Origin: a virus
Taxonomy: Duplodnaviria; Caudoviricetes
Length of the DNA: 64,000 nucleotides
Reading direction: 5' to 3' (one strand)
IMG/VR virus record: IMGVR_UViG_3300028048_000064
Location: 64,001-128,000 of that record
The position numbers were made by a program, and so were the translations under genes. Shown piece by piece: positions 55,016-63,832 of this stretch. Under the pieces are notes generated by a model. That model worked only from the letters and a program-made list of their open reading frames with translations, ran no database searches and was not told the DNA's origin. Position 1 is the first letter of the stretch. The number at the start of each line of letters is the position of its first letter.

Positions 55016-57550
55016 ATGCCAAACGTAAACAATAATATAATTACAAAAGATTGGATGGATGTACATGATGCGGTATTGACTTCCAAACTTAAAGGATTGG
55101 CCGATGCACAGATAGTCCTAACTCTTGATGCTGCTCCGGCAAATTGGGAAACCTATACTACCTATACAATCGGTACAGGGGCATCTGCCGAAGTACATGA
55201 TTTCAAGGAAGGTGATGAGGTTAGAGTACCGGACACAGGTGCTGTCAATGGCTTCTCCTATTATAAGCTTATTAAATTCACCGGAACTGGTAGTAATAAA
55301 ACTGCTACATGGGTGAAAATCGGTGATGGCACTGGTGACTATAGAGGAACTATCAAGGTAACACTGCAAGCAATTGTTAATAATGCACAAGCGTCAGGCG
55401 ATGACCTTAATGGACTTACCGTTAGTGTACAGAACGTTACAGGTAGCGAAGCTGCTATTGTAAAGACATGGGCGGGTAGTGAATTGGTATTCAATCAATT
55501 GACACCAATGAAGGAATACCTTATTACCGTACAGACAAAGAACGATACATATGTAACGAAAATCGGTGGCAATGTTGGTAATACTTATACTGTTGCATCA
55601 TTGGGTATCGCACAGGAAGTATCAAAGACATTCCAATATTTTGCAGAACAATATACAATATCAATTGACAGTAACCAAATTGATAAGACTGATATTGCCA
55701 ATGCAAAGGTTATATATAATGAAACACAATATGCTAATGGTGCTTCATTCAAAGTGCCACTTGGAACAACTATTGCAGTTGACGGCGAAAGTCAAAACGT
55801 AACAGCAACTGACTTGACAAGTACTGGTTATTCATGTGCATTGTCACTTACTAACCATGTTATTAATGCGTTGTACAGTACTGAGGTTTTATCAATTACT
55901 TCTGTAACCTCTGATAAGGCCGGTGATGATTTCGCTGGTGTCACATTTACTGTAAATAATGTTACTAAAACCTATGGTACCGATACACTTACATGGAAAA
56001 TACCATACGGTAATAGCGATATAGTTACAGCTGATAGAACAGGATTTAGTGTTACTATTACTAAAACACCTAATACAGATAAAGCTGACTCGGTATCTAA
56101 AACTGCAACAATCGCATATGAAGAAATGAAAAACGGAGTGTTCGCATATTATTCAAACGGCGATATGAAACCACTTGCACAAGCAGATAACACTGCAATT
56201 GGCGTAGCTGTTATTGATGATGATGCATGCTTTGTAATCGGAAAAAATACTACACAGTTAGCATTTGGTGGATACGGTACAGTTAATTTAACAGGTACTG
56301 CAATGGTAACAACTGATAGTACTACTGCTAAAACTGACTTTGACGGCTATCGTAACACATCAAGAATAATGAATGCACTGAAAGACCAAGCAGGCAATGG
56401 TTCAAGTCCTTATCCTGCAACTACCGGCGCTCCTGCTGCTGAATGGTGCAGAACACAATTCAATGGAGAAGGTTATCTGCCTTCATTAGGTGAAATGAAT
56501 TTTGCTTATCAACATAAAGCTGACATTGATGCAATGATGACCGCTATTGGCGGTACTGCAATGGGAACAAATTACAGCCATTGGACATCAACCCATTATA
56601 ATACAACGCAGTACTCGTGGAGGCTTAGTTGGAATGGTGGCTATGCGAATTACGGCAACCGTTATACCAATAGCTACTACGTGAGGGCGTTCCAAGCTCT
56701 TAAAACTTCAATTACTTTAAATCTTTCTGCAACGGGTAGTTCATCTATCGGTGGGCAAACCGTACTTGTGTCCGACAAATTAGGTAATGTACAAACAGCA
56801 ACATCTGATAGTAATGGTCAAGTGACATTTAGCAACGTTGCATGTGGACAGGTATTTGTTAGCGTTAAAAAATGCTTGGTTAACTCAAATCGTACAATTA
56901 AGGTGTCACCAAACAATAAAGTATTTACTATTGGGTTCAGTATCCCTAATGTAGGCCTATACTACTATAGCCTTGATAAAAATGGCAATGGCGTATTATC
57001 ACCAAGTTCAGCAACCAATGCAATTGGTGTGGCTGTTGTAACAAGTAACTGTGCATTTGTTATTGATAAAAATGATTTATCCGCAGCAAAGGGAGGTACA
57101 GGTATTGCATGGGGTGGTTATCAAGTTGATTTAAGCAATATTGGTGTAATGGTAACAGATAATAGTACAACTGCCAAAACGGACTTCTCTGGTGAGGAAA
57201 ATACTGCCAAGGTTATAAATGCATTGTACCAAGTACAAGGTGCTGCATACAACACTTATCCTGCAACGTATGGTGCTCCTGCATTGGAGACATGTACCAC
57301 TGCATTTAATGGTAAAGGCTATATGCCATCACTTGGTGAATGGAATGCTGCATACAGCAATAAATCAACGATTGACTCTATGATGCAGAATATTAGTGGA
57401 TATACAGCAATTAAAAGTGGATACCATTGGGGTAGTACAATATATAATGCTACGCAGGGCTCGTGGATTCTTTATTGGAATCTTGGCAATTCGGATGGCC
57501 TCGACCGTTATAACTATAGCAGCTACGTGAGGGCGTTCCAAGCTCTTTAA
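55016..57550 (+). CDS. DGR target protein (tail fibre/adhesin) with two tandem C-type-lectin-like domains, each ending in a variable repeat
   Basis: Duplicated AIGVAV...TAKTDF.G..NT...GAPA...GY.PSLGE...W.ST...YVRAFQAL units; both match the TR except at adenines. Confidence 0.9.
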   Translation: MPNVNNNIITKDWMDVHDAVLTSKLKGLADAQIVLTLDAAPANWETYTTYTIGTGASAEVHDFKEGDEVRVPDTGAVNGFSYYKLIKFTGTGSNKTATWVKIGDGTGDYRGTIKVTLQAIVNNAQASGDDLNGLTVSVQNVTGSEAAIVKTWAGSELVFNQLTPMKEYLITVQTKNDTYVTKIGGNVGNTYTVASLGIAQEVSKTFQYFAEQYTISIDSNQIDKTDIANAKVIYNETQYANGASFKVPLGTTIAVDGESQNVTATDLTSTGYSCALSLTNHVINALYSTEVLSITSVTSDKAGDDFAGVTFTVNNVTKTYGTDTLTWKIPYGNSDIVTADRTGFSVTITKTPNTDKADSVSKTATIAYEEMKNGVFAYYSNGDMKPLAQADNTAIGVAVIDDDACFVIGKNTTQLAFGGYGTVNLTGTAMVTTDSTTAKTDFDGYRNTSRIMNALKDQAGNGSSPYPATTGAPAAEWCRTQFNGEGYLPSLGEMNFAYQHKADIDAMMTAIGGTAMGTNYSHWTSTHYNTTQYSWRLSWNGGYANYGNRYTNSYYVRAFQALKTSITLNLSATGSSSIGGQTVLVSDKLGNVQTATSDSNGQVTFSNVACGQVFVSVKKCLVNSNRTIKVSPNNKVFTIGFSIPNVGLYYYSLDKNGNGVLSPSSATNAIGVAVVTSNCAFVIDKNDLSAAKGGTGIAWGGYQVDLSNIGVMVTDNSTTAKTDFSGEENTAKVINALYQVQGAAYNTYPATYGAPALETCTTAFNGKGYMPSLGEWNAAYSNKSTIDSMMQNISGYTAIKSGYHWGSTIYNATQGSWILYWNLGNSDGLDRYNYSSYVRAFQAL
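56606..56701 (+). repeat. DGR variable repeat VR1 (internal)
   Basis: 96-nt ungapped match to the TR; 16 mismatches, all at TR adenines. Confidence 0.95.
57452..57547 (+). repeat. DGR variable repeat VR2 (C-terminal)
   Basis: 96-nt ungapped match to the TR; 19 mismatches, all at TR adenines. Confidence 0.95.
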
Positions 57551-57555
57551 AACTT

Positions 57556-57580
57556 TATTCTCCCCAACCAGGGGAGAATA
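57556..57580 (+). promoter_or_regulatory. hairpin downstream of VR2/IMH (DGR homing hairpin and/or terminator)
   Basis: TATTCTCCCC-AACCA-GGGGAGAATA, a perfect 10-bp stem. Confidence 0.75.
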
Positions 57581-57711
57581 TTTTTTACTTTATTTAGGCT
57601 GTATTTGTTTTTTAACGCTCTTAATTGGTGAACTATCCACGTCTAAAAGTAAGGTACTTTTTGCAAATTTTGTTAAAAATACTTAAATAAAAACATTTTT
57701 TGTGAAAAATA

Positions 57712-57743
57712 TTTGTATATATGCAGAAAAAGTATTACCTTTG
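57712..57743 (+). promoter_or_regulatory. Bacteroidota sigma-A-type promoter for avd-TR-RT
   Basis: TTTG-N20-TACCTTTG. Confidence 0.75.
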
Positions 57744-57786
57744 CACAACAAAATTAAACATTAATACTTTTAAAAAGTAAAATTCG

Positions 57787-58152
57787 ATGGCAAAGACTAA
57801 TACATTATCCGTATATAAAGTTACGGAGGAACTAACAACAAGAGTTTACTTACTTATTGGTAATTATAGTAAAAAATTTAAACATACCCTTGGTGATAAA
57901 ATATGTGAAGGATGTATAGAATTACTTAGTTATATAACATATGCTAATAGGTCAGAAGAAATTGCTGTACGCATAAAGTATTTGAATGATTTTCTTTTAA
58001 AATTTGAAATTGTAAAAAATCAATTAAGATTATCTTATAAACTTAAATGTATAAGTTTAAAACAAATGACTGATATTTCTGTTTTAATCAATGACGTTGA
58101 AAAACAGATTGTTAGTTGGAAGAAATTTAGTAAAACTAAGGAAAATAAATAG
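57787..58152 (+). CDS. avd: DGR accessory variability determinant (four-helix bundle)
   Basis: Basic 121-aa helical protein (LSVYK...KFKHTLGDKI...LRLSYKLKCIS...QIVSWKK) immediately upstream of the TR and RT. Confidence 0.85.
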   Translation: MAKTNTLSVYKVTEELTTRVYLLIGNYSKKFKHTLGDKICEGCIELLSYITYANRSEEIAVRIKYLNDFLLKFEIVKNQLRLSYKLKCISLKQMTDISVLINDVEKQIVSWKKFSKTKENK

Positions 58153-58281
58153 ATAAAAAATTTTTGTCAGAATCATTGAAGTTACGGCGACAATGAGTGA
58201 ACGTTTACTATTAAAAAGAGGGGTGTGCACTGTAAACCTTTAATATTAAGGAGCAGTTAAGTGAATAGTTACACCATGAAA

Positions 58282-58377
58282 ACGCAGAACTCGTGGAAAC
58301 TTAATTGGAATAATGGCAATACGAATAACAACAACCGTTATAACAATAACAACTACGTGAGGGCGTTCCAAGAACTT
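58282..58377 (+). repeat. DGR template repeat (TR)
   Basis: 13 AAY codons and 39 adenines; parent of VR1 and VR2; followed by a GCCACTAT/ATAGTGGC hairpin in the TR-RT spacer. Confidence 0.95.
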
Positions 58378-58468
58378 TTTATAGTAGATATTAAGAGCCA
58401 CTATATTTCAAATAATAGTGGCATTTTTTTTATTAACAATTTTGTTTAATAAAAAAAAAAATAATATT

Positions 58469-59671
58469 ATGGTGGCATATGAAGACATATTTGAAGCATA
58501 TTTTGAATGCAGAAAAAAGAAAAGAGGTAAAAAAACTTCTTTAGAGTTTGAAATGAGTTATGAGGCAGAATGCGTATCTTTAGCAAATGAAATAAATAAT
58601 CGTACATATGAGATTGGTACATCTATAGCATTTTTTGTGCAAAGACCAAAGAAAAGAGAAGTCTTCGCCGCCAATTTTAGAGACCGTGTTGTCCATCATT
58701 GGTTAGCGTTAAGGCTTGAACCTTTATTTGAAAATTTGTTTATTGAAGACACATATAGTTGCAGAAAAGATAAAGGTACGCAATATGGCATTAAATGTTT
58801 AAAAGAAAAAATTGAACATTTAAGTAATAATTATACTGAAGATTGTTATGTTTCAAAATTTGATTTACAAGGCTTTTTCATGTCAATTGACAAGGAAATT
58901 CTTTGGACAAAATTAAAACACTTTATAGAAGAAAACTACAAAAACACTGTTGATTTTGATGATGTATTATGGGTAACAGAAAAAATAGTCAAGCATTGTC
59001 CGGAGAAAAACTGTATAAAACGTTCTCCTGAAAGTTGGTGGATTGGTTTCCCCGAAGACAAGTCATTATTTACTTGTGGTGAAGGGAAAGGCCTTCCAAT
59101 TGGCAATTTAACATCTCAACTATTTGCTAATTTTTATATGCATGAATTTGATGCAATGATGGTAGAAAAATTTGGAGACGGGTATGGCAGATATGTTGAT
59201 GACTTTTTCATAATTGCTAAAGATAAACAAGAGATATTGAATTTTATAAATCCAATGAAAAAGTTTCTTTTTGAAAGACTGCATGTAAAGCTTCATCATA
59301 AAAAGATGTATTTGCAGCATGGGTCAAAAGGTGTTAAATTCATTGGGGGTGTTGTCAAACCAAAACGTATTTATACGGGTAATGAAACCATAACCAACTT
59401 CTGTAATGCCATTGATGACATTAATAAAAATTATCGTAAATATACAATTGAAGACATTGTATGCCGTCTTAATAGTTATTTTGGTTTTTTGAGACACACT
59501 AAAAGCTTTAATATAAGAAAAAGAATGTTTTTAAAACTTAATTTAAAAGTTACTAGTAAGCTTTATTGCAGAGGCTTTTACGAAAGTGTTGTAATTAAAA
59601 AACAGTTTAAAAAGAAAAATAAATTAAAAAATAAGATAAGAAGTTTAATAAAGAATAGTGTTGAATTTTAA
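58469..59671 (+). CDS. DGR reverse transcriptase
   Basis: KKREVFAANFRDRVVHH, YSCRKDKG, KFDLQGFF, GLPIGNLTSQLFANFY, RYVDDF, FIG. Start moved to ATG 58469. Confidence 0.95.
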   Translation: MVAYEDIFEAYFECRKKKRGKKTSLEFEMSYEAECVSLANEINNRTYEIGTSIAFFVQRPKKREVFAANFRDRVVHHWLALRLEPLFENLFIEDTYSCRKDKGTQYGIKCLKEKIEHLSNNYTEDCYVSKFDLQGFFMSIDKEILWTKLKHFIEENYKNTVDFDDVLWVTEKIVKHCPEKNCIKRSPESWWIGFPEDKSLFTCGEGKGLPIGNLTSQLFANFYMHEFDAMMVEKFGDGYGRYVDDFFIIAKDKQEILNFINPMKKFLFERLHVKLHHKKMYLQHGSKGVKFIGGVVKPKRIYTGNETITNFCNAIDDINKNYRKYTIEDIVCRLNSYFGFLRHTKSFNIRKRMFLKLNLKVTSKLYCRGFYESVVIKKQFKKKNKLKNKIRSLIKNSVEF

Positions 59672-60727: not shown

Positions 60728-60797
60728 GCGTCTTTGGTGTAATGGTTGCATATCTGATTTCCAATCAGAAGGACAGGTTCAATTCCTGAAGACTGCT
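60728..60797 (+). tRNA. tRNA-Gly(TCC), slightly atypical
   Basis: TCTGA-TT-TCC-AA-TCAGA anticodon arm and GGTTCAATTCC T arm; acceptor GCGTCTT/AAGAC(T)GC has a bulge. Confidence 0.75.
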
Positions 60798-60802
60798 CTC
60801 TT

Positions 60803-61256
60803 TTGCATATCATAGGTAGTTTCTTCAAAATTCGGTGGAAATCCTTCCCTTCAAACCTGCAATTTATAATGTGTGGCTTAAGTATGGCGGAGGAACCACA
60901 ACACTAATCAATAATGTGCAAGGATAATACCGAGTTAAATTGAGATAATGACCTCCTTAATTGGACTGGGAAAGTTAAAAGCTTTTTATCTTATAGTACC
61001 TAAGTTGAAATTTATATAGTAGAAAAGCGGAGCACGTGTGAATCGGAGGTAACCAGTTCTAGTAGAAGCACTTCATCGTGTGGGCTGGGCATAAATGAGG
61101 AGATACTACTATGTAACTTGCAAGAATTTCAATAAGGTAATTTCAGACTACAACAAACAAAGAATAGAGGAATAGCAATTTGCTATAAACTCCACTGTCA
61201 ACTGACAGGAAGTAGGCTTTATTGTACAAACCACTTTGTTTGGCTATGATATGCAA
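60803..61256 (+). ncRNA. large (~455 nt) end-paired structured RNA candidate
   Basis: 13-bp perfect closing stem TTGCATATCATAG/CTATGATATGCAA, many internal helices, and no ORF in the track. Confidence 0.6.
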
Positions 61257-61272
61257 TCTTTAGAAAATATAT

Positions 61273-61562
61273 AGAACAAGTACAGACCACTGAGTAGGAA
61301 CTGGGGAAGTGATAGGTAAATGCTAGCTTCATATTTATCATGTAGACGGACTCAAAGCAGTACCGACAGCCCAGTGAAAGGTGTTGGTTAGGATAAGGAG
61401 TTATCCAATACGTGAAGAGCAGCGTATTTCGTGAGAAGCCATAAGCAGGAACACAACAAATGCCGTAAAACAGCGCAAGTGCCTAATAGCGGGTTTCCTG
61501 ATTAAATCTGAATAGATGATAAAAGGTTGCAAAAGTCTGTACCTCGTAAATTTACTTGTTCT
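61273..61562 (+). ncRNA. ~290-nt end-paired structured RNA candidate
   Basis: AGAACAAGTA/TACTTGTTCT and GTACAGAC/GTCTGTAC pairings plus internal hairpins. Confidence 0.55.
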
Positions 61563-61569
61563 TTTGAAT

Positions 61570-61641
61570 GCTTGGATAGCTCAGAGGCAGAGCATCGCAC
61601 TGTTAATGCGAGGGTCGGGATATCGTAATTCTCTCCAAGCG
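61570..61641 (+). tRNA. tRNA-Asn(GTT) with non-canonical T arm
   Basis: GCTTGGA/TCCAAGC acceptor, TAGCTCAG D arm, TCGCA-CT-GTT-AA-TGCGA; T loop reads ATCGTAA. Confidence 0.75.
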
Positions 61642-61785: not shown

Positions 61786-61943
61786 GTGGCAGTAACTCAG
61801 TTGGTAGAGTGCCGGACTGAATACAGAGTAAACTGAAAAATCAAACTTCGTATTGGTTGAGTGGCTGAAACTTTTAAACATTGGTTCGAATCCAATATAC
61901 GAAGCAAATCCGGTTGTCGGTGGTTCAAATCCACCCTGCCGCA
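61786..61943 (+). tRNA. tRNA-Phe(GAA) interrupted by an 85-nt insert (61822-61906) containing a tRNA-like module
   Basis: Removing the insert gives a canonical cloverleaf: GTGGCAG/CTGCCGC, CCGGA-CT-GAA-AA-TCCGG, GGTGG-TTCAAAT-CCACC. Confidence 0.88.
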
Positions 61944-61971
61944 CATTTATATGAAAAAAAAACGTTCGAAA

Positions 61972-62021: not shown

Positions 62022-63068
62022 ATGAAAATGATTGATATTACAAGCGACGAAAACAAGAGAGAAATTTACAAATTATTTGATTCTTTTAATAAAAAAGAAG
62101 ACATATACAATTATTTTGGAATAAGTCATAATAGCTATGGTGTTAAGTATGTTAATGCTATTGCATTAGAGATTAATTTTGATTTAAATATTTATCATAA
62201 AAGACGTTTTCCGGAAAGATTTTGTTTAAATTGTGGAAAAAAATTAAAAAAAGGACAAAAGAAATTTTGTGGCCATTCTTGTTCAGCCTCATATAATAAT
62301 GCTACAAGTGCAAAAGTTGTTAATAAGAAGAAAAAACAAGTAAAAAGTCGGGTAAACAAACAAAATAAATGTAAAGTATGTGGAAAAATAGATTGTTTAC
62401 ATACAGGCGTTTGTAATCATCATTCTTTAAATTGGTTTGATAATCTTATATATTTCGGTTTTGATAAAACGAAGTTAGGAACTGATGGCGTTTTTAATGA
62501 ATATGAAAATGTAAAAAAGAAAATTTCAGATGAATATAAAAATGGTTTGTCTGTATCTGCAATCAAAGAAAAATATAATTATCAGGGTTCAACTGAACGT
62601 CTTGTTCATGTTATGAAAAACATGGGAATTAATTTACGTTGTTTATCTGATGCTTTGCGTAAAGCCATTAGCGAAAAACGTTGTAAATTGCCAGAAGTTA
62701 TGAAACAATTTAATTATGGGTGGCATAATACATGGGATGGATACAAAGTTTTTTATCGCAGTTCATATGAATATGATTTATGCAAATATTTTGATGACAG
62801 AAAAATACACTATGAAATGGAAAATTTAGTAATTGAGTATTTTGACACCATTTTAAATAAAAAGCGTTATGCGTTACCAGATTTTTATATTGAAAAAGAG
62901 AATAAAATTATAGAAGTTAAATCAAGAGTGACATTTGTTAAACAGAATATGATAGATAAAATGAAACGTTATATAGAGTTAGGGTATGATGTTTTATTAA
63001 ATTATGAGCATAAAATGTATACCTTTGATGAAATGCTTAAAATTGAAGAATATAAGTATAAGATTTAA
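62022..63068 (+). CDS. free-standing homing-type endonuclease: zinc finger plus C-terminal PD-(D/E)xK (TnsA-N-like) domain
   Basis: CLNCGK...KFCGHSC zinc finger; YRSSYE...YALPDFYI...IIEVK. Start moved to ATG 62022. Confidence 0.75.
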   Translation: MKMIDITSDENKREIYKLFDSFNKKEDIYNYFGISHNSYGVKYVNAIALEINFDLNIYHKRRFPERFCLNCGKKLKKGQKKFCGHSCSASYNNATSAKVVNKKKKQVKSRVNKQNKCKVCGKIDCLHTGVCNHHSLNWFDNLIYFGFDKTKLGTDGVFNEYENVKKKISDEYKNGLSVSAIKEKYNYQGSTERLVHVMKNMGINLRCLSDALRKAISEKRCKLPEVMKQFNYGWHNTWDGYKVFYRSSYEYDLCKYFDDRKIHYEMENLVIEYFDTILNKKRYALPDFYIEKENKIIEVKSRVTFVKQNMIDKMKRYIELGYDVLLNYEHKMYTFDEMLKIEEYKYKI

Positions 63069-63075
63069 ATAATTT

Positions 63076-63274
63076 GGGAGGTTATTCCGTAAGTGGTAGC
63101 GGGGCTGACTGTATACAGAGTAAACTGAAAATCAAATTTTAGTTTGGCTGAGTGGTTGAAAGCTAAGGCACTAAGTGCTGAGTGAATTTACACTCACATT
63201 CGCCGGTTCGAATCCGACAACTAAAACAAATCAGCTGCTTAACGGCTCGGGTGGTTCGACTCCATCACCTCCCA
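63076..63274 (+). tRNA. tRNA-Tyr(GTA) interrupted by a 115-nt insert (63114-63228) containing a tRNA-like module
   Basis: Removing the insert gives GGGAGGT/ACCTCCC, GCTGA-CT-GTA-AA-TCAGC, a long variable arm and GGTGG-TTCGACT-CCATC. Confidence 0.88.
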
Positions 63275-63308
63275 CATAATTTTTCATAACTAATGTTTCT
63301 GATTGAAT

Positions 63309-63599
63309 ATGTTACAGAAAATTAAAGAAAAATATAAACGATACAAAAGGTTAAAAGGACTTAGAACATATCGTAAGTTAAGAAACACTTTTGATACTGA
63401 ATATGGAAAATTCCTTGCTTATATGTATTATGTCGGTGGTGAAGGAAAATTAGAAGACTTATATAAGTTATTTAATCCTGAAATAATTAGACGTGCTTGG
63501 TTTGCCGGATATTTTAACGTCTATGATAAAAATTTAGGGTGGAAAGACCATCTGTACAATACAGATGTATATAAAAAATATGATAATGGAAAAAAATAA
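63309..63599 (+). CDS. hypothetical protein
   Basis: Basic ~96-aa ORF within the tRNA cluster. Confidence 0.5.
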   Translation: MLQKIKEKYKRYKRLKGLRTYRKLRNTFDTEYGKFLAYMYYVGGEGKLEDLYKLFNPEIIRRAWFAGYFNVYDKNLGWKDHLYNTDVYKKYDNGKK

Positions 63600-63832
63600 A
63601 ATTCAGACCCGATGTTTTGCTGTGTCAGAGTAAATAAACAGTAGGTGGGATATGGTATGTCACCTTGATAGAAGAAACAGAGAGAAACTGTGCTAATATC
63701 AGAATAAACCATTAATACTAGTTAAGGGTAATGAGGTTTTGTAGGTAAGGAAACCGCCGCACTAAGTTTGGAAACAATAAATAAGAACTAAGTGAAATGG
63801 TAAGTTGGTTTATGGATTTCCAACGTAAATTT

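Follow-up and report, generated by a model that had tools for sequence, protein, structure and literature searches.

The virus record IMGVR_UViG_3300028048_000064 (here G000) comprises 149,924 bp, with a CheckV completeness of 41% and a GC content of approximately 38%. The window, which is the whole stretch of DNA analyzed here, covers 64,000 nucleotides (positions 64,001 to 128,000 of the record), and coordinates below refer to the window unless they are given as genome positions. A diversity-generating retroelement at 55016 to 59671, with a reverse transcriptase (58418 to 59671, RVT_1), a bAvd gene (57787 to 58152), and an upstream 844-aa ORF, precedes a long tRNA array that runs from near 60.7 kb. 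Nuclease-type ORFs are free-standing in the array, at 62022 to 63068 and 63309 to 63599 and at genome positions 131145 to 132041 and 128721 to 129470. The first of these encodes 348 aa and has an N-terminal domain in common with a 298-aa HNH-type paralogue; an HNH_2 protein is also present, and a 96-aa ORF that follows the tRNA-Tyr gene is absent from a 235-kb IMG/VR relative (G001) owing to an indel. Three conserved blocks between tRNA genes are free of ORFs (60797 to 61266, 61267 to 61565, and 63599 to 63832). The second is 81 to 90% identical to G001 and to contig L020, and its part from 61412 to 61560 is 77 to 89% identical to Lak-A1 and Lak-B1, while the third is 86% identical to G001. 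No Rfam match was found in these blocks. They are candidate structured RNAs and perhaps have a connection with the 'highly expressed intergenic regions' of Lak phages. The tRNA-Asn(GTT) gene of the array (61570 to 61641) has an odd T arm, GGGAT-ATCGTAA-TTCTC, and was missed by ARAGORN, with an Rfam score of 50.8 bits. Further downstream, at genome positions 136097 to 136262 (L126:8097-8262), an outer tRNA-Met(CAU)-like gene with the loop CUC/.../AUAA holds a complete 72-nt tRNA with the anticodon UUA (ARAGORN 'Stop tta'). This inner tRNA, a possible ochre suppressor, starts exactly at the 5' junction and is followed by a 22-nt trailer with a 5-bp hairpin, the mirror of the leader-type introns described below; no homologue of it was found in G001.

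Within the array, a class II tRNA-Tyr(GTA) gene at 63076 to 63275 is split in its anticodon loop by a 115-nt insert (63113 to 63227). Excision of the insert leaves an 85-nt tRNA-Tyr(gta) that ARAGORN calls at default settings, and uninterrupted tRNA-Tyr genes of Enterococcus phages align with the outer exons in two pieces covering 81 nt. Excision of 63114 to 63228 gives an identical spliced product, the ends of the insert being ambiguous by one A; the sequences of related inserts favor the boundaries 63113 to 63227. A sister insert interrupts the tRNA-Phe gene of the same array. The features are as follows.

61821..61905, plus strand: sister intron (85 nt) in tRNA-Phe(GAA), outer gene 61786 to 61944; its leader is identical to that of the Tyr intron, and its minimal body has neither an anticodon arm nor a variable arm
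63076..63112, plus strand: 5' exon of the outer class II tRNA-Tyr(GTA), ending in ...GCTGA CTGT (anticodon positions 34-35); 100% identical to G001
63113..63115, plus strand: ATA, the N-U-A trinucleotide that opens the intron, from the 5' junction to the leader hairpin; (A/T/C)-T-A in all dissected members
63116..63127, plus strand: leader hairpin CAG-AGTAAA-CTG, with 3/3 pairs varying on both sides across the family
63128..63136, plus strand: A-rich linker AAAATCAAA, with little or no variation among the Phe, Tyr, and Lys introns; A/T-rich and 8 to 12 nt long in the others
63137..63144, plus strand: 5' strand of the 8-bp acceptor-like stem, TTTTAGTT (7 bp plus a -1:73 pair), with 8/8 pairs varying on both sides among 16 distinct sequences
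63147..63163, plus strand: tRNA-Ser-type D arm GCTG-AGTGGTTGA-AAGC, aligned by the Rfam tRNA model and exactly the D arm of phage tRNA-Ser
63164..63201, plus strand: variable middle at the anticodon-arm and variable-arm positions (constrained fold); elsewhere in the family this place has 0 to about 50 nt of unrelated sequence
63168-63178, plus strand: hairpin GCAC-TAA-GTGC of the variable middle, at the anticodon-arm position (constrained fold)
63179-63196, plus strand: 6-bp hairpin TGAGTG-AATTTA-CACTCA of the variable middle, at the variable-arm position (constrained fold)
63202..63218, plus strand: T arm GCCGG-TTCGAAT-CCGAC with one C.A mismatch; GGTTCGAWTCC is near-invariant in the family, and 4/5 stem pairs vary on both sides
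63219..63226, plus strand: 3' strand of the acceptor-like stem, AACTAAAA, from family segmentation and covariation
63227, plus strand: invariant C, the final base of the intron and position 74 of the inner module; C in 17/17 members
63228..63275, plus strand: 3' exon of tRNA-Tyr (AAA TCAGC ... ACCTCCC A C), from ARAGORN on the spliced product and comparison with G001

An earlier note, made from the sequence alone, had described the insert as a class II-like tRNA mimic, and the stem, D arm, two hairpins, and T arm that it listed were all recovered in their places. The Rfam tRNA model, whose gathering score is 29, scores 63138 to 63226 at 34.0 bits (E = 0.0026 over the whole window and 8.7e-06 over the local stretch). 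The alignment includes the acceptor, D, and T arms, with a 34-nt insertion where the anticodon arm belongs. The cloverleaf of the earlier note folds at -21.8 kcal/mol, against -23.4 kcal/mol for the minimum free energy structure, and when the tRNA frame is enforced in folding, the middle forms both hairpins. In a rival fold, AAACUGAAAA of the leader pairs with UUUUAGUUU of the acceptor 5' strand (63122 to 63146), and the nearest-neighbor model rates this fold as 4 kcal/mol more stable; it is specific to the Tyr copy and could be either a switch or a product of chance.

The module lacks the canonical anticodon arm with a 5-bp stem, a 7-nt loop, and U33. At default settings, ARAGORN called no tRNA in the insert alone, which is consistent with its not being a normal tRNA, and at relaxed settings it called a tRNA-Leu(taa) whose anticodon stem has 3 bp and whose 7-nt loop, ACUAAGU, has C rather than U at position 33. 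The thermodynamic fold closes this hairpin to a 3-nt loop. The earlier note was thus right that this is no normal anticodon arm and went too far in stating that a 7-nt loop is impossible, since one can be drawn. The class II traits of the insert are a D arm identical to that of tRNA-Ser and the 6-bp variable-arm hairpin, the latter known from a single sequence. A search for homologues of the long Tyr body by a pattern of D arm plus T loop returned ordinary tRNA-Ser genes only, and no close relative was found among the phage's own tRNAs. Both middle hairpins therefore rest on one sequence, and the covariation described below covers the leader, acceptor, and T helices.

The Tyr insert is one of a family of 20 tRNA-gene interruptions that follow one plan, drawn from this phage, G001, metagenome and IMG/VR contigs, and Lak-A1 and Lak-B1, and 17 of them were dissected in detail. 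Members outside the Lak phages came from pattern scans, ARAGORN with the intron option, and a covariance model, and the Lak genomes were added from the literature. The 5' junction is followed by N-U-A, a hairpin of 3 to 6 bp with the loop A(G/A)UAAA (ARUAAA), which is sometimes longer, and an A-rich linker of 8 to 12 nt. The body then consists of an 8-bp stem, an optional D arm, a free middle of about 0 to 50 nt, the T arm GGTTCGAWTCC, the 3' strand of the stem, and an invariant C, after which the 3' junction follows. The introns range from 79 to 141 nt. Five interrupted tRNAs are present in G001 (Asn, Tyr, Thr, Lys, and Arg), a tRNA-Lys intron is found in at least five metagenome contigs and one IMG/VR contig, and another contig carries Asn and Thr introns. 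A metagenome scan with a 17-mer gave at least 7 real copies among the 119 matches listed, and further metagenome copies surely exist. In the window and the 20 kb downstream of it, a covariance-model search found no leader-type copies besides Phe and Tyr. The covariance model (R1) scores the Tyr insert at 73.5 bits, and the insert has the features of the Lak-type introns, namely, an anticodon-loop site, a canonical tRNA upon removal, a covarying acceptor/T module, the NUA-hairpin leader, and the terminal C. The conserved 5' leader hairpin and the invariant terminal C, together with the published precedent in Lak phages, had escaped the earlier note.

The helices of this plan covary. In an alignment of 16 distinct sequences guided by the model, the fraction of paired cells is 92.6%, compared with 66.5% in shuffles, and 15 of the 16 pairs vary on both sides (acceptor, 8/8; leader, 3/3; T, 4/5). 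Fitting an alignment to the model favors structure; for the acceptor and T helices, the T loop and the terminal C provide an independent anchor as well. Controls with slid partners gave 30 to 45% pairing. The leader hairpin occurs in compensatory variants (ATGG/CCAT, ACGG/CCGT, CAGG/CCTG, and CAATC/GATTG), and pair 2 of the D arm is C-G in the Tyr insert and T-A in the Phe insert, which is likewise compensatory. The possibility that the leader imitates the anticodon loop of the spliced tRNA was also considered, as ACUGAAAAUC equals the spliced Phe loop; it was rejected as a general feature, since the Thr, Lys, and Arg leaders keep the hairpin and not the string. The motif CAGAGTAAA showed no clear enrichment outside introns.

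The middle of the body differs widely among members. Phe-type bodies have an unstructured linker of 6 to 9 nt, the Lak-A1 Thr intron forms a hairpin of 9 bp closed by a 4-nt loop, and the Lys and Lak-B1 Asn introns have about 50 nt with unrelated hairpins. None of the family members has a canonical anticodon loop and several have no anticodon arm at all, in agreement with the view that the insert is a tRNA mimic and not a nested decoding tRNA. Because other members hold 0 to about 50 nt of unrelated sequence at this place and never a proper anticodon loop, the two hairpins of the Tyr insert appear to be dispensable for the role of the family. The expected difference in length from the Phe insert (115 versus 85 nt) was confirmed and lies between the acceptor stem and the T arm (57 versus 26 nt). 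When the 17 homologous inserts are aligned, indels are confined to the stretch between the D and T arms, as had been anticipated. The accompanying idea that only the elbow and the ends are constrained holds in that length varies only there, and the constrained core is even smaller, the D arm being lost in the member at L180 3964-4029. Very few bases outside the T loop are invariant. As read from the aligned members, the constrained core is the acceptor/T minihelix with its ends, and the tRNA-like module acts as a structural handle rather than as a decoder.

Some ancestry can still be read from the Tyr body. Its D arm is letter-identical to that of phage tRNA-Ser, and the D arm sequence GCTGAGTGGTTGAAAGC is present in 40 viral contigs, in which ARAGORN called 32 of the 37 genes as tRNA-Ser. 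The proposed descent from a tRNA-Ser/Leu-type gene can be narrowed on this basis: a class II ancestry is a reasonable reading of the sequence, with Ser rather than Leu as the source. The long body may be either ancestral or secondarily expanded. The middle of the Tyr copy is a decayed pair of tRNA-Ser-like hairpins within a free expansion segment.

The presence of these introns varies between related phages. The tRNA-Phe gene is interrupted in G000 and uninterrupted in G001, and tRNA-Asn is interrupted in G001 and uninterrupted in G000. For tRNA-Tyr, the intron-less homologues seen are distant ones, in Enterococcus phages, and the G001 gene carries a different intron body, which is a short Phe-type body with a different acceptor stem. 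The Tyr exons of G000 and G001 are nevertheless 100% identical (37 + 48 nt), and bodies have evidently been swapped while exons and leader were kept, as far as these sequences tell. The interrupted Phe and Tyr genes are the sole ones for these amino acids in the tRNA array, and removal of the intron in silico restores a canonical tRNA in 15 of the 17 members. These introns are small, have no ORF, and are apparently mobile, and their insertion sites are anticodon loops in the tRNA genes of large gut phages.

The insert ends are ambiguous in the Tyr, Phe, and Lys genes because they are flanked by A's. The 3' junction was fixed by the unambiguous G001 Asn intron (L001 2224-2380) in comparison with the uninterrupted Asn gene of the window (61570 to 61641), the loop of which is CTGTTAA. 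This loop is restored only if the intron starts after CTGT and the 3' junction comes immediately behind the terminal C. Applied to the other genes, this rule gives canonical loops in all members, agrees with the Arg(UCU) reading indicated by the D loop and synteny, and places the junction one nucleotide from the tRNAscan prediction, in the same manner as the one-nucleotide offset of the Lak Thr intron from its tRNAscan prediction (Devoto et al. 2019, PMC6784885). The 5' junction always lies 3 nt before the leader hairpin, and its position in the outer loop ranges from 33/34 to 36/37, being 35/36 in Tyr. Under the after-C rule, the Lak 'Tyr(GTA)' genes (L130 14004-14168, minus strand, and L131 17707-17922, plus strand) would become Asn(GTT), in keeping with the G73 and the class I shape of these genes; an uninterrupted class II tRNA-Tyr is encoded separately in Lak-A1.

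The ordinary tRNA genes of these phages end in a characteristic way. Among 110 genes in nine arrays (G000 124728-136262, L001, L129, L130, L131, L044, L125, L023, and L180), C74 is encoded in 103 and CCA in 4, so that the typical gene ends in N73-C74 followed by a non-CCA trailer. Such partial encoding of CCA is unusual and is consistent across the arrays. The intron module, read as 7 bp plus a paired -1:73, also ends in N73-C74, and the 3' junction lies exactly there. This identity between the module end and the end of an ordinary tRNA gene hints that a 3'-maturation activity frees the 3' exon; it is the strongest hint that the activity forming normal tRNA 3' ends may also cut after C74 of the module. 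The RNase Z of Bacillus subtilis cuts after N73, not C74, and C74 pairs with RNase P RNA (PMC1874595). The enzyme for the C74 end is therefore uncertain, and the invariant C could serve RNase P instead.

Several enzymes were sought that might take part in removing the intron. A PF09414 RNA ligase of 222 aa is encoded inside the tRNA array of this phage (genome positions 132122 to 132790), and a ligase with 97% identity is found in the array of G001. PF09414 proteins, which we take to be ligases joining 3'-OH to 5'-phosphate ends, are also encoded by Lak-A1 and Lak-B1, and in Lak the closest homologue of the G000 ligase lies away from the tRNA array and looks split. The presence of the ligase in the array was considered as a general association and discarded, as it holds for G000 and G001 only. 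The proteins common to the arrays of these two phages are the ligase and an HNH-like domain only. RtcB and the archaeal splicing endonuclease EndA (PF01974) were both absent from G000, G001, Lak-A1, and Lak-B1, whereas they were detected in the control genomes, archaeal ones in the case of EndA. Rfam ribozyme and intron models gave no match to the insert at the gathering score or at E values up to 10. The 348-aa nuclease-like ORF at 62022 to 63068 was considered as a splicing enzyme and set aside, as it is without a Pfam match and is missing in G001 and Lak-A1.

On this evidence, the Tyr insert is probably a protein-spliced intron, the tRNA shape of which recruits tRNA end-processing enzymes, a reading to which we assign a probability of roughly 0.55. 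RNase Z or an equivalent enzyme, which makes the ordinary tRNA 3' ends of the phage, would cut right after N73-C74 of the module and leave a 5' phosphate on the 3' exon. The other cut would fall 3 nt upstream of the leader hairpin. The 5' junction is about 24 nt upstream of the RNase P site at the junction of leader and body, and RNase P and RNase Z alone therefore cannot make the end of the 5' exon; another nuclease, guided by the NUA-hairpin, is needed for the 5' cut. A host enzyme of the RNase E/Y type or a dedicated nuclease is a candidate, and the preference of RNase E-type enzymes for sites that match the U at intron position +2 offers a lead, but no more than that, for this cut. The outer cloverleaf would keep the exon halves together, and an ATP-dependent RNA ligase, for example, the PF09414 enzyme of the phage, would rejoin them. 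Recombination or homing may spread the introns among tRNA genes and phages, perhaps aided by the free-standing endonucleases of the arrays. That RNA ligases are common in large phages counts against this explanation. More tentatively, the family may represent a further route of tRNA splicing, in which the end-maturation machinery (the N73-C74 activity, RNase P, and a hairpin-guided nuclease) would act as the endonuclease and a phage 3'-OH/5'-P ligase would reseal the exons, with the leader-hairpin, C74-ended subfamily as a distinct variant.

Other explanations agree with parts of these data. A dedicated phage or host endonuclease might read the NUA-hairpin and the minihelix and make both cuts, with the same ligation and with the end-processing enzymes uninvolved in the junctions. 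The 5' junction, fixed 3 nt from a conserved hairpin and loop, is like a protein recognition site, RNase P is unable to make the 5' cut, and many ORFs in the tRNA arrays have no annotated function. We nevertheless consider such an enzyme unlikely, given that the G000 and G001 arrays have only the ligase in common besides the HNH-like domain, that the 348-aa ORF beside the Tyr gene is missing in G001 and Lak-A1, that no EndA-type enzyme is present, and that the terminal N73-C74 is the same as the end of an ordinary tRNA gene. It is less probable still that the excised tRNA-shaped RNA is itself the product, stable like mascRNA from MALAT1, with its removal being secondary and its role being that of a decoy for tRNA-targeting defenses or tRNA-binding enzymes. 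Against this reading stand bodies of almost wholly different sequence and size, a dispensable D arm and middle, and elements that in the loci searched are found only inside anticodon loops and never free-standing; in its favor are a conserved T loop, elbow, and C74 end, and the addition of CCA to the released module is imaginable. Anticodon nucleases target some of the isoacceptors among Lys, Tyr, Asn, Phe, Thr, and Arg, and the interrupted genes, being of these six kinds, include such targets.

The insert could also be a selfish DNA insertion that is kept in the RNA, leaving tRNA-Tyr dead, with the tRNA shape as a relic of the origin of the element. Such an insertion would account for the variable presence of the elements in many different tRNA genes and for the homing-type endonuclease genes nearby, but it is very unlikely in view of exons that are perfect and identical across phages with differing bodies, of the interruption of the only genes for tRNA-Phe and tRNA-Tyr in the array, of the compensatory changes that preserve three helices of the insert, and of an insert end that coincides with a tRNA-type 3' end. 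Known tRNA introns of bacteria and phages self-splice (group I), and the conserved hairpin loop and the A-rich linker have no assigned role, so that a new small self-cleaving or self-splicing ribozyme with the tRNA-like fold as its scaffold can be envisaged. The lack of an Rfam ribozyme or intron match even at E = 10, the few invariant bases beyond the T loop, and a body that can shrink to a bare minihelix make this highly improbable, and the ligase encoded here, a PF09414 enzyme presumably acting on 3'-OH and 5'-phosphate ends and not an RtcB-type one, fits protein nucleases and not cyclic-phosphate ends. Finally, we see hardly any chance that a nested decoding tRNA, tRNA-Leu(UAA) or Ser-like, is released from the precursor. 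The Rfam tRNA score above the gathering score, the relaxed ARAGORN call of Leu(taa), and the complete tRNA(UUA) nested in tRNA-Met elsewhere in the genome speak for it, but ARAGORN calls nothing at default settings, the 3-bp anticodon stem comes with C33 and a loop closable to 3 nt, the anticodon arm is missing from homologous introns that share the leader and D arm, and the phage already has a normal tRNA-Leu(taa).

To our knowledge, the tRNA introns described from bacteria and their phages are all self-splicing. If the reading as protein-spliced introns is true, these tiny protein-dependent introns would form a widespread class and constitute a new splicing route that borrows tRNA-trimming enzymes and a repair-type ligase. 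In the Tyr copy, the class II-like hairpins appear as a dispensable decoration on a minimal handle. For annotators, the junction rule is to cut after the inner N73-C74, which corrects anticodon calls such as that of the Lak 'Tyr' genes to Asn.

Like group I introns, the family occupies an anticodon-loop site, is apparently mobile, and occurs in phage tRNA regions with homing-type endonucleases. Its members differ from group I introns in measuring 79 to 141 nt and in having no group I core and no Rfam match; the Tyr insert has 115 nt, against a size criterion of about 200 nt or more. The tRNA introns of archaea and eukaryotes, which have a bulge-helix-bulge and are processed by EndA/Sen and by RtcB or Trl1, are also small, lie in the anticodon loop, and have exons held together by the tRNA body, and protein splicing would be a further likeness. 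The introns described here have no bulge-helix-bulge, their junctions are at 35/36 (33/34 to 36/37 in relatives) rather than at the canonical 37/38, and the expected ends are 3'-OH and 5'-P. In the sequence of the Tyr insert, no 4-bp helix of the bulge-helix-bulge kind was found between loop bases 32-35 and the 3' end of the intron.

Elements of the mascRNA/MALAT1 type are tRNA-like modules that are cut by RNase P and RNase Z. They have in common with the Tyr insert a non-decoding tRNA-shaped module within a longer transcript, with ends set by tRNA end enzymes, although cutting by RNase P or RNase Z would apply here by analogy. They differ in being eukaryotic, in lying at the 3' ends of transcripts and not in a tRNA anticodon loop, and in that their flanks are not religated.

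The closest counterparts are the tRNA introns of the Lak megaphages, which were called 'enigmatic', one of them with the remark that it 'may encode a tRNA' (Devoto et al. 2019, Nat Microbiol, PMC6784885, Fig. 4, Table S6), and a 2026 survey repeats such introns for jumbo phages (PMC13037316). The Phe, Thr, and 'Tyr' introns of Lak-A1 and Lak-B1 have the NUA, the hairpin with the ARUAAA loop, the A-rich linker, the 8-bp stem, the T arm, and the terminal C, the Lak Phe leader contains ACAGAGTAAACTGT, and the variation in length between Lak-A and Lak-B lies in the middle. The Tyr insert differs from them in the phage lineage, in a host gene that is a true class II tRNA-Tyr, in the Ser-type D arm, and in the two middle hairpins. 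The shared architecture, the junction rule after C74, and the insufficiency of RNase P and RNase Z for the leader-hairpin subfamily are not in PMC6784885 or PMC13037316, and neither paper proposes a mechanism. If true, the proposed splicing route would also explain the megaphage introns reported in 2019, and the Tyr insert is a newly found member, with an unusually tRNA-Ser-like body, of this published but unexplained kind.
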